Origin: Dictyostelium discoideum
Lineage: Eukaryota
Length of the DNA stretch: 64,000 nucleotides
Assembly (NCBI GenBank): GCA_000004695.1
Contig: CM000153.2
Location: forward strand, 448,001 to 512,000
Reading direction: 5' to 3'
Shown: in pieces, positions 32,042-47,564 of the stretch
Layout of the letters: each line of letters opens with the position of its first letter
How positions within the stretch are numbered: position 1 is the stretch's first letter
The notes under the pieces: generated by a model
What the model saw: the letters and a program-made list of their open reading frames with translations, nothing else
What the model was told of the DNA's origin: nothing
The model's database searches: none
Position numbers and translations under genes: made by a program

Positions 32042-32244
32042 ATGACATCTCAAAATTGGAAAAATTGTTTTAATAAAAAAGCAATTGAGGTTATTGAAAT
32101 TCATAGATCTCAGGAAACAATCACTGTTGAAACAGTAAATAATGAAGATAAAATCAAGAATAATATTTCAAAACCCAAAATTAAAGTACATAAAAAACCA
32201 ATAATTAAATCAATTTCAAAGTTAAAATTACAACCAAAATTTTC
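32042..32244 (+). CDS. ankyrin-repeat protein kinase (+ paralog), exon 1
   Basis: ATG at 32042; GTAAGT donor at 32245 (phase 2). A 302-nt AT-rich intron containing an (ATT)n run; TATAAAAG acceptor at 32539-32546. Confidence 0.6.
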
Positions 32245-32546
32245 GTAAGTAAAAACATTTTAAATTCTTTTTTTTTTTTTTTTTTTTTCATGAAAAAAAA
32301 CATTTTAAATTCTTTTTTTTTTTAATTTTTTTTTATTTATTTTTTTTTTATTATTATTACTATAATTATTATTATTATTATTATTATTATTATTATTTTT
32401 ATTTTTATTATTATTATTATTATTATTATTATTATTATTTTATTATTATTTGTATTATTTTTTAATAAAAAAATAATTTAAAAAATTCTAATATTTTTTT
32501 TTTTTTTTCTTTTTTTTTTTTTTTTTTTTTTTTTTTTTTATAAAAG

Positions 32547-33684
32547 GAGATACAATGATATTATTGATTATTCAATTGATTTCAATTGTAATAAAAATTA
32601 TTTCTTAAAACAAGATAAAGTTAGTGGTAATACTTTTATTCATGTTTTTTGTGAAAAAAGAGAATCAAAAATAAATTTAGAATCTGATATTGAAAATTTA
32701 AAATGTTTGGGAAAGGAAACGATTGAAGCAAGGAATAATAATAAGGAAATTGCACTATTTTCAACTTTAAAAAACCAATGCCTTGGTTTAAAAATAATGC
32801 ATGAATTAATTTCAAGAAATGTTATGTTCATTGATGATAATGGTAAAGATGAGTTACTAGTAAAATGTTTAGAAGAGGGTAGAGTTGATATGGTGAAATA
32901 TTTAATTACCGTTGATATTAATTTGATCTCAAAATTAAAGAGAATATGCCAAATTACCCAATTAAGCCTAGAAACACTTCAATTTGTCGAATTAATTAAT
33001 TCAGAATATGAAAAAATCGTAGAAATTGGTTTAAAATCTGCAGGTAGAGAATACATTAAATTGTTTTTCATTCAATTTATTTTGGGTAATTTTTCAAAAG
33101 AATCAATCATCCAAACAATTGATGAATATAAATTACCACCAATTCCAAAAGAAATTGAAGATTTTTTCTTTGTTTATAATTATCAAATGTGTGACTTTGT
33201 TAAATTAACTGAAATCAAACCACGTTACCTCAATGAAATTTCTAAAATAAATATCTATCCAATTGGTCAAGTCTCCATTGAAAGAAGAAATGAACTCGGT
33301 CGTGGTGGTAATGGTACCGTTTATTCAGGTGTATTAAAAGAGATTGATAGTCAAGGTAATGAAATTTCAATACCAGTTGCAATCAAAATACCAACTCAAT
33401 TCTATAAATCAAAATTGGTTGAAGTATATAAAGAGTTGGCTATTCATCAAAAGATTAATGGTATTTGTGGTCCAAAGTTATTTGGATGCGTAAAGTTAAA
33501 TGTTGGATTTGGTATTATAATTGAAAGATTTGATTGTAGTTTACATGACTATATTCAAAATAATAATATCGATTTCGATTTATTTTTTGAATTGGCTCTT
33601 AAAATGGTTATAACAATTAGAAATCTACACAAATGTCATTTAAATGAAATATTCCATCGTGATATTAAACCACACAACTGGTTA
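32547..33684 (+). CDS. ankyrin-repeat protein kinase (+ paralog), exon 2: ankyrin-like repeats plus kinase subdomains I-VIb
   Basis: Ankyrin-like DDNGKDELLVKCLEEGRVDMVKYLI; glycine loop GRGGNGTVYSG; VAIK; HRDIKPHNWL; GTATGT donor at 33685. The ORF-track M at 32707 is a TTG codon, not a real start. Confidence 0.8.
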
Positions 33685-33772
33685 GTATGTATATTATTTT
33701 AATACTTTTTCATTTTTCATTTTAATATTATAATTTAATTTAACTCTTTGTATTTTTATTTATTTATTTTAG

Positions 33773-34423
33773 GTTAAAAAAACTAAAGATGAATTGGTGG
33801 TCGTTTTATCTGATTTTGGTTTATCAAGAGAGAATAGTGAAACAAATGAAAATACTCTTCAGAAATATAGAGGAACATCAGTATTTATTCCACCAGAATT
33901 AAATGATAATATCTTATATAATGAAAAATCAGATATATACTCTTTGGGTGTATCATTTATGATGTTGCTTTATAAAGTTGTTTATGGCAAAATGGAAAAC
34001 CCATTTTATGAATTCAAAATTTCAAAAATGGAATACTTCAAAACAGTTGTTGCTTTAGAGAACTTTTTAGTACCAATTGTACCAACATTTTTACCTGATT
34101 CTTTTAAAGAGTTCTTGTTCTCAACAATGAATAGAATCTATACATGTCGTCCAAATTCTGAAGAATGTGTAGAAAGACTCATAACACTAAAGACTGAATA
34201 TGAAAATGATAAAACCAAATGGCAAGTAAATAGTGCTATTATACAAAAAGAAAAATCATTACTCACTGATTCAATAATTTCACAACAATTGAAATTAATG
34301 AACCAAGTTAAAAAATTTGTTCAAGAAAATGATAAATTCGTTTTTTTGAAGAAAACAAAATTATTTTTTTCAGAATCTGAAATTAAACAATATCTTTTGT
34401 CAATAATAAAATGTCAAGAATGA
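33773..34423 (+). CDS. ankyrin-repeat protein kinase (+ paralog), exon 3: kinase subdomains VII-XI
   Basis: TTTTAG acceptor at 33767-33772. VVVLSDFGLSRE (DFG), GTSVFIPPE (APE-like). Stop at 34421-34423. Confidence 0.8.
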   Translation, partial: VKKTKDELVVVLSDFGLSRENSETNENTLQKYRGTSVFIPPELNDNILYNEKSDIYSLGVSFMMLLYKVVYGKMENPFYEFKISKMEYFKTVVALENFLVPIVPTFLPDSFKEFLFSTMNRIYTCRPNSEECVERLITLKTEYENDKTKWQVNSAIIQKEKSLLTDSIISQQLKLMNQVKKFVQENDKFVFLKKTKLFFSESEIKQYLLSIIKCQE

Positions 34424-44698: not shown

Positions 44699-45797
44699 CA
44701 ACCAATTTTCTAATTTAATATCTCTATGATATACATTTATTTCTGCTTCTGGATAGTGGTTATGAACCTGAGAAACAGAATTTACCATCTGTGTCGATAA
44801 AATGAAGAAAAGATCTAAATTAATTTGGTTACAGGATATGAAGTTTTTTAAATCCATATCGCATTTTTCGATGATAATAGAGAGTCCAAATTTTAATTTT
44901 GAAACACCAATTAATTTCAAAATATTTTCACCTTGCAATGATTGATGAACTGATACTTCTTTATAAATACGTTCAAAACTATCGTCATCATAATTTTTGA
45001 ATGATTTTATTGCGACTGGCGTTATAGTATTTTGAAGATTGATATATGTGGCTTTATGAACCGTACTGAAACCACCTTCACCAATAATTGAAAAATCTGA
45101 TAGTTGACTTTTATCAATTATTCCAACCTTTTCAATGGATTCTATTTCATTTTTTTTTAAATTGTATTTTGTTTTATAATCATCCATTTTGAATATGAAT
45201 TTGTTGACTGCTTTTTCAATTTCAGTAGGAACTGGTGCATTGGCAACTTTAAATAATAACTTTAATTTTTCTTGACTATAAATTAATTCTGTTAATAAAG
45301 CAATATTTGTTTTAATTAATTTACCATTAACACTATCTGGAATAGTACTAAAGTATGCCATCGAAAAATAAATATCATCAAAAATATCTTGAATATCTTG
45401 ATCAGTATTTTTACAATTTTGGCATATTTCAAAATGATCAAATCCAAAAGAAATTAATAGTTTTAATATCGGTATGTTTTTAAGATTTATGCACTTGCAT
45501 AGAATTGAGTGACCATGTTTATTTGTTTTCTTTGCCATCTCTATATTAATTAAACCATTACAAACCATTTCACACACCAACTGAAGTCCATTCACTTTAT
45601 TTTCAATGGCATAATAAAGAGAACTATTTTCATTTTCATCACTACATGATATTACTCCAATTTTAGAAAACTCACATAGGAATTGCTTAACATCTGGACC
45701 AGAATAAGTCAAGCAGAAATGGTGAAAGATTTTATAACAATCATTTATAGAATCTGTAAATAATTCTGGGAATTGGTTGTGAATTATTTGTATGTTT
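44699..45797 (-). CDS. ankyrin-repeat protein kinase (- paralog), exon 2
   Basis: Glycine loop GEGGFSTVHKATY; VAIKSF; HRDIKLENWL; GTATGT donor at 44693-44698 (minus), the same position as in the + paralog. The frame stays open upstream of the TTG the ORF track used as a start, with no in-frame ATG, so an upstream exon is required. Proposed acceptor TTACAG at 45798-45799 (minus), phase 2. Confidence 0.8.
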
Positions 45798-45896
45798 CTG
45801 TAATCTTGAAAAAGGTCTACGTGAATATTTCTTTTTTTTAAAATTTTTTTTTTTTTTGGAAAATATTTAATGAATAAATAATAAAATTAACAATAT

Positions 45897-45958
45897 AAAA
45901 AAAAAAAAAAAAAAAAAAAAAAAAAAAAAAAAAAAAAAAAAAAAAAAAAAAAAAAAAA
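45897..45958. repeat. 62-nt homopolymer (poly-A on +, poly-T on the gene strand) inside the proposed kinase intron 1
   Basis: A perfect run of A at 45897-45958. Confidence 0.9.
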
Positions 45959-45963
45959 CCTAC

Positions 45964-47564
45964 TTTGGTATTTTTTTAATTCTAATTTCTCTTAGATTTC
46001 TTATACATCTAATTATTGGATTTTGAATCTTTTTTTCATTATATGTAAAGTTTTGTTCACTATTATTATTATTATTATTATTATTATTATTATTATTATT
46101 ATTATTATTACTATTATTATTAATATTATTATTATTATCAATAACACTATTATTATTATCAATAACACTATTATTATTACTTTCTTCAACTATATAATTA
46201 TTACTTTTATTATTATTATTATTATTATTATTATTATTATTATTATTATTATTATTATTATTATTATTATTATTATTATTATTATTATTATTATTATCAC
46301 TATTATTATTATTATCAATAACACTAATATTATTATTACTTTCTTCAACTATATAATTATTAATATTATTATTATTATTATTATTATTATTATTATTATT
46401 ATTATTATTATTATTATTATTATTATTATTTTCATTATCATTATAAATGTTACTATTTGGAAAAACATCATTAAAAATAACCTGCAACACTTTGGTTTGC
46501 AGAATTGCAAGAACAGTTTGGTATATATAATCCTCCTCTAAATATGATAATTGACTTTTCAATTTATTTTCAATTTTAAGACCTTGGATTAATTTTGAAC
46601 TTTCTTTATCAATAATTGTAAATACTTTTATTAATATATTTTCGAAGATGCTTTTTATATTATTTTTATTATTATTTTTATTGTAATTGTTTTTGTTGTT
46701 GTTTTCAATAGATTTGATTATATTGGTTGAATTATTTTTGTCGATTGTGTCATTATTATTAATACTATTACAATTAACACTTGTACTAATATCGCTATTA
46801 CTATTACTATCATTATCATAGCTATTATTACTACTATTGCAATCTTCTTTACTATTATTATTTTCTCCAACTATTATTATTTCATAATTATGATTTTTAT
46901 AATTGTCATCATTTTCATCATTTTTATTACTCTCAATATCACTATTTATTGCTATAACACAATCTATTTCTTCTTTATTATACTCTATTTTCTCGAAAAT
47001 AAAGATATTATTATTATTATAATTATTATTATCATTATTACTAATACTATCAAAATCAGAGTTGATATATTCTTTATTATTTTCTATTATTTTCTCTTTT
47101 TCAAAATTATTATTACTATTATTATTAATATTAATATTACTATTATTACTATTATTATTACTATTGCTTTCTCTAACTATATTATAATTAATAGTACTAT
47201 TATTATTACTATTGTAATCATCCTTATTATTATTTATTATATTACTTTCTCCAACTATACAATTATTATTATTATTATTATTATTATTATTATTATTATT
47301 ATTATTATTATTATTATTATTATTATTATTATTATTATTATTATTATTATTATTATTATTATTATTATAATTAATATTATGATTAATATTATTTAAAGAA
47401 ATATTTTTTTTAGGAGAACAATAATATTCCTTTTGGGAGAGAGGAATAGAAATATTTGGACTACTACTCATTCGTTCAAAATGTTCTATTCTGTTTTTGA
47501 TTGGGGAAAATGAATTGTTTGGTGTATTGGTTTTATTAATATTATTATTATTATTATTTTCCAT
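45964..47564 (-). CDS. proposed exon 1 of the - kinase gene: 533-codon poly-Asn low-complexity N-terminal extension (alternatively a separate low-complexity gene)
   Basis: ATG at 47562-47564 (minus). The ORF ends ...SEQNFTYNEKKIQNPIIRCIRNLREIRIKKIP, which resembles the start of the + paralog exon 1 (MTSQNWKNCFNKKAIEVIEIHRSQE). A GTAGGT donor overlaps its stop codon at 45958-45963 (minus), phase 2, the same phase as the + paralog intron 1. A 166-nt intron to 45797 joins in frame. Confidence 0.45.

Follow-up and report, generated by a model that had tools for sequence, protein, structure and literature searches.

Why should four adjacent genes in the genome of Dictyostelium discoideum read as a mirror image, with a protein kinase gene and a receptor gene on either side of a common centre? 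The genes lie in a 64,000-nucleotide stretch of chromosome 4 of D. discoideum AX4 (contig CM000153.2, positions 448,001 to 512,000; hereafter the window, in whose own coordinates all positions are given), the sequence of which is extremely AT-rich. A first-pass annotation of this DNA had explained their arrangement by a single ancient inverted duplication of a kinase-receptor cassette. The gene models that we built from the sequence reproduced the order kinase (+), receptor (-), receptor (+), kinase (-) together with its coordinates, and placed the midpoint at about 38.8 kb. We favour a different origin, to which we give a probability of roughly 0.55: an ordinary head-to-head pair of tgr genes is bracketed in AX4 by a two-member kinase family, and the mirror is a composite of independent histories. 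The four genes, called here kA, r1, r2 and kB, and the two spacers that bear on their history are as follows.

32042..34423, plus strand: kA, a protein kinase gene with degenerate ankyrin (Ank) repeats; exons 32042-32244, 32547-33684 and 33773-34423; 663 amino acids.
34981..38413, minus strand: r1, a tailed tgr-family gene of TgrB-like architecture; exons 38413-38356 and 38291-34981; 1122 amino acids.
38414..39135: divergent r1/r2 intergenic region, presumed to be a bidirectional promoter; 722 bp (gene models, Tandem Repeats Finder (TRF) and partial alignment with the D. discoideum assembly ACTFIR).
39136..41776, plus strand: r2, a tail-less tgr-family gene of TgrC-like architecture; exons 39136-39211 and 39285-41776; 855 amino acids.
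41777..43930: convergent r2/kB spacer; 2.15 kb; the junction is broken in the D. cf. discoideum assembly ACTFIY.
43931..47564, minus strand: kB, the sister kinase gene; exons 47564-45964, 45830-44699 and 44584-43931; 1128 amino acids; our own model.

All four genes are already annotated, and tgr pairs as such are familiar units. The spliced product of kA is identical to XP_639149 (Q54R98, DDB_G0283301), named 'probable serine/threonine-protein kinase', while those of r1 and r2 are identical to XP_639150 (Q54R97) and XP_639151 (Q54R96), both named 'IPT/TIG domain-containing protein', in the case of r1 by NCBI and UniProt. The product of the kB model had no exact match in the protein collection, and neither had the 534-amino-acid open reading frame (ORF) of its first exon taken alone.

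The proposal that the two kinases are paralogs was borne out in a strong form, as they are exclusive sisters that are physically linked. They share 30% identity over 517 amino acids (E=1e-63) in an alignment that spans the pre-kinase region, the kinase domain and a C-terminal EYExDxxKW tail. A profile made of the kA orthologues and one kB orthologue was scored exhaustively against 1.84 billion representative proteins; the top ranks went to the kA and kB groups, and the next match reached only 200 bits. In blastp, kA recovered the kB group at 209 bits versus 130 for the next match, and kB recovered the kA group at 196-202 bits versus 127-130. A neighbour-joining tree with the 13 closest outsiders placed kA and kB in an isolated clade on a long branch, with a bootstrap of 100/100. 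By search and by tree, therefore, the two kinases are closer to each other than to their unlinked relatives, the nearest of which belong to the Ank(+SAM)+kinase type and come from other Amoebozoa, among them Acytostelium, Arcella, Pyxidicula and Rhizamoeba. Among the annotated proteins of the clustered databases searched, relatives of kA and kB turned up in the discoideum and citrinum clades and nowhere else; word-indexed protein searches returned few Dictyostelium relatives, with kB orthologues in ACTFIY only. Judged from their sequences, kA and kB appear to be the sole two members of a private, young and fast-evolving family derived from Ank-kinases. This exclusive two-member family, like the conserved adjacency of kA to the tgr pair that is set out below, appears to be undescribed so far; searches of papers for DDB_G0283301 or the UniProt accessions gave no matches.

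By our own estimate, made for a genome of about 12,500 genes and a two-member family whose members lie two genes apart, random placement would yield this kA-kB linkage about 5 times in 10,000. Linkage by chance is unlikely, and since the only two members of the family are found two genes apart, local duplication is the natural origin of kA and kB. Most likely the kinase gene alone was duplicated, within the same chromosome arm. The kinase-receptor-receptor-kinase pattern as such would be expected about once in 12, again by our own estimate, given four adjacent genes of two kinds.

The shared exon structure that the first-pass annotation had described holds in part. A phase-0 GTATGT intron follows immediately on the NWL codon in both kinases, and the orthologues break at the same residue. 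The first intron is of phase 2 in both, but its positions are only approximately equivalent and the first exon of kB is not short, with 533 codons that are mostly poly-Asn and include two short blocks conserved in ACTFIY. The junction in our kB model is supported by a phase-2 donor and acceptor of equivalent position in that assembly, and the kB orthologue P0005 is 85% identical to kB. In the window, the stop codon of the ORF formed by exon 1 of kB (45964-47564, minus strand) overlaps the proposed GTAGGT donor, and the automated annotation of ACTFIY makes a separate gene of this exon. The ankyrin-repeat label of the two kinases is weakly supported. Their Pfam Ank_2 scores (19.8 and 17.1 bits) fall below the cut-off of 27.3, although their nearest outside relatives are clear Ank+kinase proteins whose repeats align to the pre-kinase region of kA and kB. 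As in the Ank TKL-type kinases of Amoebozoa, for example Acytostelium subglobosum XP_012748067 and Arcella intermedia A0A6B2KZT3, the N-terminal Ank portion precedes the kinase domain and the alignment spans both; in contrast to these proteins, kA and kB have sub-threshold repeats and carry a private C-terminal extension made of EYExDxxKW and a predicted helical tail.

Matches to Pfam Pkinase were clear in both kinases (kA 96 bits, kB 118 bits, cut-off 31.7). Because the catalytic motifs are conserved (GxGxxG/S, VAIK, the alpha-C Glu, HRDIKxxN, DFG and (A/P)PE), with the exception of HSD in place of HRD in P0003, the kA prediction of ACTFIY, both kA and kB are predicted to be active. An AlphaFold model of kA, based on an alignment of six sequences, had a mean predicted local distance difference test score (pLDDT) of 47.

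The two receptors also proved to be paralogous, with 28% identity over 736 amino acids (E=3e-43). As read from the sequence, r1 has a signal peptide, an ectodomain, one transmembrane segment and a cytoplasmic tail of about 250 amino acids, and no Pfam match of its own. The transmembrane segment of r2 lies at the extreme C-terminus, and the protein matches Pfam Ig_TgrO1 (92.9 bits) and TIG. A phase-1 intron follows the signal peptide in both genes, and their start codons, at 38413 (-) for r1 and 39136 (+) for r2, diverge. By the presence or absence of a tail alone, r1 and r2 would be TgrB-like and TgrC-like, respectively, an architectural assignment that does not fix their membership in tgrBEJ and tgrCDK.

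Pairs of tgr genes underlie kin recognition in Dictyostelium, and the head-to-head pairing of dissimilar tgr genes has been described as a general feature of the family (tgr literature). The r1/r2 pair resembles the tgrB1-tgrC1 allorecognition pair on D. discoideum chromosome 3 in several respects: two dissimilar genes diverge from a short shared region (722 bp here), only one of them encodes a cytoplasmic tail, the other protein ending at its transmembrane segment, evolution is fast, and the flanks are prone to rearrangement. It differs in being on chromosome 4 and in being bracketed by two sister kinases, whereas gta and arr genes are the neighbours named in published descriptions, where they are the often-duplicated neighbours of the tgrBC locus. 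No kinase is mentioned in the tgr literature that we searched, including that on tgr evolution. Protein searches with kA, kB and r1 returned no named Tgr proteins.

Comparison of r1-type and r2-type genes across genomes points to two old tgr classes. Identity was 63-89% within the r2 type and 48-85% within the r1 type, and always 27-30% between the types, D. firmibasis included. Judging by these identities, the r1/r2 split is older than the divergence of D. firmibasis, and the pair is of an older type that duplicates as its own unit. Indeed, head-to-head pairs of the two types occur elsewhere, in ACTFIR (locus L006), in the D. discoideum assembly ACTFIW (L010) and in D. firmibasis (L007), and none of them has a kA/kB-type kinase within 10 kb; the pairs of the two D. 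discoideum assemblies adjoin the gene of an FAD-binding protein (FAD). At a distant site of ACTFIY (L008), about 6 kb separates the two types and no kinase is present. We rejected the D. firmibasis locus as a syntenic site without kA, as its tgr genes match but its flanks do not. A gene of 414-470 amino acids beside FAD in ACTFIR and ACTFIW was likewise rejected as a kinase; it encodes a Q-rich protein, which from its sequence, recognised by eye, we take to resemble the Dcp2 decapping enzyme. It stands there with the second r2/r1 pair of these assemblies, in which the side of the aldehyde dehydrogenase gene (Aldedh) was not seen.

When AX4 was compared with ACTFIY, all four genes were found to evolve fast. 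The nonsynonymous substitution rate (dN) and its ratio to the synonymous rate (dN/dS) were 0.123 and 0.55 for kA, 0.075 and 0.25 for kB, 0.151 and 0.59 for r1, and 0.070 and 0.46 for r2, compared with 0.005-0.029 and 0.04-0.23 for six of seven flanking ORFs. Both kinases thus evolve mostly 3-10 times faster than their neighbours, and on this comparison of dN they behave like the tgr genes and not like the other genes around them. No whole-gene dN/dS exceeded 1.

Could both paralogue pairs nevertheless stem from one event, as the first-pass annotation had it? One ancestral cassette of a kinase (+) and a receptor (-), copied in one palindromic duplication, would yield both pairs, with the later tgr pairs descending from it by loss of their kinases. 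Such an event would account for the mirrored order and orientation in AX4 and ACTFIR, for the exclusive sisterhood of the kinases, for the like depth of the two pairs (30% and 28% identity) and for the similar average dN of the kinase pair and the tgr pair. However, the palindrome exists in gene order and orientation and not in the DNA: the only inverted repeats between the arms are poly-A/poly-T runs, no collinearity of the arms was found outside the coding regions or at the nucleotide level, and the arms are unequal in length (6.4 and 8.4 kb) and do not have the same gene content. The r1 and r2 types stand together without kinases at the four other loci described above, D. firmibasis included, so that the kinases would have to have been lost repeatedly, from every other tgr pair. 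Taxonomic spread is also unequal, since an r1/r2-type pair occurs in D. firmibasis while kA and kB were not detected among annotated proteins beyond the discoideum and citrinum clades, even though the r1/r2 split is older. An ancient layout would be expected to persist in related genomes; it is absent in ACTFIY and was not seen in the D. cf. discoideum assembly ACTFIZ or in D. citrinum. We therefore consider a single ancient duplication of the cassette unlikely.

The layouts themselves, drawn from 20-kb loci (L numbers) around the orthologues, are given below, X being an unnamed gene of 440-570 amino acids just upstream of kA.

AX4: Aldedh, tgr debris, kA-r1-r2-kB-FAD.
D. discoideum ACTFIR: Metallophos-AtuA-X-kA-r1-r2-kB.
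D. discoideum ACTFIW: left flank as in ACTFIR (Metallophos-AtuA-X-kA); beyond kA the contig stops.
D. cf. discoideum ACTFIY: two sites about 100 kb from each other, FAD-kB-Aldedh and Metallophos-AtuA-X-kA-r1-r2-ADH.
D. cf. discoideum ACTFIZ: Aldedh directly beside FAD; kA embedded in a group of four copies of the r2 type and remnants of r1; the final gene in view is not kB.
D. citrinum: AtuA-X-kA, followed by an r2 fragment and, in minus orientation, two genes of the r2 type.

Three further features of the window enter this comparison.

27004..43716: segment of about 17 kb (tgr debris, kA, r1 and r2) between Aldedh and kB in AX4, not found at that position in ACTFIY (blastn and tblastx against L002).
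27678-28075 and 29705-30134: r2-type tgr pseudogene fragments in both orientations, upstream of kA (tblastn and blastn).
ORF 49204-50607: FAD-binding protein gene DDB_G0283303; its product is identical to the AX4 protein.

The mirror is thus confined to AX4 and ACTFIR, a sister pair in the kA tree, and because the adjacency of r2 and kB is limited to these two, a great age of the layout is unsupported. In neither ACTFIZ nor D. citrinum was kB seen at a distance of up to 10 kb from kA. The last gene of the ACTFIZ locus L004 was tried as a candidate for kB and rejected, its C-terminus being unrelated. The sequence comparison with ACTFIY gave the same picture at finer scale. Window positions 18772-27003 and 43717-55861 are collinear with L002 of ACTFIY, with nothing in between, so that AX4 has the block of about 17 kb between Aldedh and kB in addition; blastn homology with L002 ends at 43717, and the kA-r1-r2 block matches ACTFIR, ACTFIY and ACTFIZ as far as 41881. 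In all five genomes in which that side is readable, kA adjoins tgr genes, and no observed breakpoint splits them.

As an observation in its own right, the junction between Aldedh and FAD (about 27.0 kb and 48.8 kb in the window; L002, L006, L009 and L010) is empty in ACTFIZ, holds kB alone in ACTFIY and holds kA-r1-r2-kB in AX4. This junction is a local hotspot of insertion and rearrangement.

These layouts raise the possibility that the symmetry is a recent accident of juxtaposition in a tgr-associated hotspot. The gene kB would ancestrally have stood between Aldedh and FAD, with kA-r1-r2 about 100 kb off beside AtuA and X, until an inversion in the common line of AX4 and ACTFIR joined r2 to kB. 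Exactly this separation is present in ACTFIY, Aldedh lies directly beside FAD in ACTFIZ, X adjoins kA in D. citrinum, ACTFIY, ACTFIR and ACTFIW, and the restriction of the r2-kB adjacency to the sister pair is as this history would have it. Moreover, tgr loci are documented hotspots of rearrangement (tgr literature), and the layouts could pass into one another through one or two inversions, some 100 kb in size, that break at the module's edges, as far as 20-kb snapshots of each genome allow one to judge. On the other hand, the r2-kB and kB-FAD adjacencies are each common to AX4 and one other genome, which would make a mirror-type ancestor and an ACTFIY-type ancestor about equally parsimonious, and in the outgroup D. 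citrinum kB was not located. Recent juxtaposition is possible, but we lean against it.

In the composite origin that we prefer, the kinase-receptor-receptor-kinase mirror would result from the divergent orientation that is family-wide among tgr pairs, with one copy of the locally duplicated kinase placed on each side, and this placement would have been made or reshuffled by rearrangements with breakpoints at module edges. As the comparison of genomes shows, the mirror layout is changeable, and it gives no sign of being the relic of one ancient duplication of a kinase plus a receptor. The interpretation in the first-pass annotation is thus supported in part, for the paralogy of the kinases and of the receptors but not for a single cassette duplication. 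Several points weigh against this origin. The two paralogue pairs are of similar depth, in identity as well as in average dN, which is compatible with a joint duplication. The absence of kA and kB from D. firmibasis and beyond refers to annotated proteomes and not to searches at the genome level. Because kB was located neither in D. citrinum nor in ACTFIZ, its ancestral position is ambiguous, and the adjacencies fit an ancestor of either type. Finally, r1 and r2 may belong to any of several tgr subfamilies (for example tgrE/D or tgrJ/K).

The partners of the tgr pair appear in different states of preservation. In ACTFIY and ACTFIZ the r1-type partner is frameshifted or a remnant, and D. citrinum has none beside kA, while the r2-type genes remain full length (L003 13072-15480; L004 12509-14004 and 17383-18247; L001). 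A 2025 PNAS paper described the same asymmetry of decay for tgrB versus tgrC.

What might the kinases have to do with the tgr genes? Our functional lead is the combination of a repeat in the r1 tail with the conserved adjacency of kA, and for the adjacency it concerns kA only. The tail contains a 66-nt (22-amino-acid) tandem repeat in about 10.9 copies (34843..35553, minus strand; TRF), with D(V/L)ACSS in each N-rich unit. The array runs past the stop codon of r1. The motif is present in 10 in-frame copies in AX4 and in 2-3 copies in the r1-type genes or remnants of ACTFIR, ACTFIW and ACTFIZ, and in none of the r1-type copies of ACTFIY or D. firmibasis. A reasonable hypothesis is that kA acts with the adjacent tgr genes, for example by phosphorylating the Ser-rich tail of r1. 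TgrB1 is known to carry a phosphosite of unknown function in its tail.

A more far-reaching proposal would make kA, perhaps with kB, a dedicated, co-evolving cytoplasmic kinase of r1 that acts on the D(V/L)ACSS tail after engagement of r2, so that kinase, receptor and ligand would form a selected supergene of three genes. If true, it would provide a model for the kinase, not yet identified, that phosphorylates the TgrB1 tail. We regard it as unlikely. The Brassica S-locus, with SRK and SCR, is a recognition supergene that links receptor, ligand and kinase activity. By analogy, polymorphic and fast-evolving cell-surface recognition genes would be tightly linked to a kinase gene in Dictyostelium as well, kA standing by tgr genes in the five readable genomes; unlike SRK, kA is a separate cytoplasmic protein and not part of the receptor. 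In any case, a private and fast-evolving kinase family with one member beside a TgrB-like/TgrC-like pair offers a candidate signalling partner that can be put to the test. Rearrangement breakpoints also cluster around the tgr genes here, which makes the locus a second and smaller case of this kind. Should the linkage be historical only, it would reflect ordinary local gene duplication and rearrangement.

Some minor features of the window remain to be recorded. No RNA genes were found in an Rfam scan of 26000-49500, nor in a tRNA scan of the whole window. The r2/kB spacer (41777-43930) is unusually long and less AT-rich in its part at about 41.9-42.4 kb; it yielded no RNA family or tRNA and could not be aligned with ACTFIR. 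Within the r1/r2 promoter region, an (ATT)69 microsatellite occupies 38885-39087, and a GC-richer block at about 38739-38936 can be aligned with the orthologous promoter of ACTFIR. The r2-type fragments upstream of kA show 74-85% nucleotide identity to r2 paralogues and could be remnants of an old duplication or substrates of inversion. Among the flanking genes, the ORF at 22717-23466 (minus strand) had a dN of 0.087-0.118, versus 0.005-0.04 in its neighbours.

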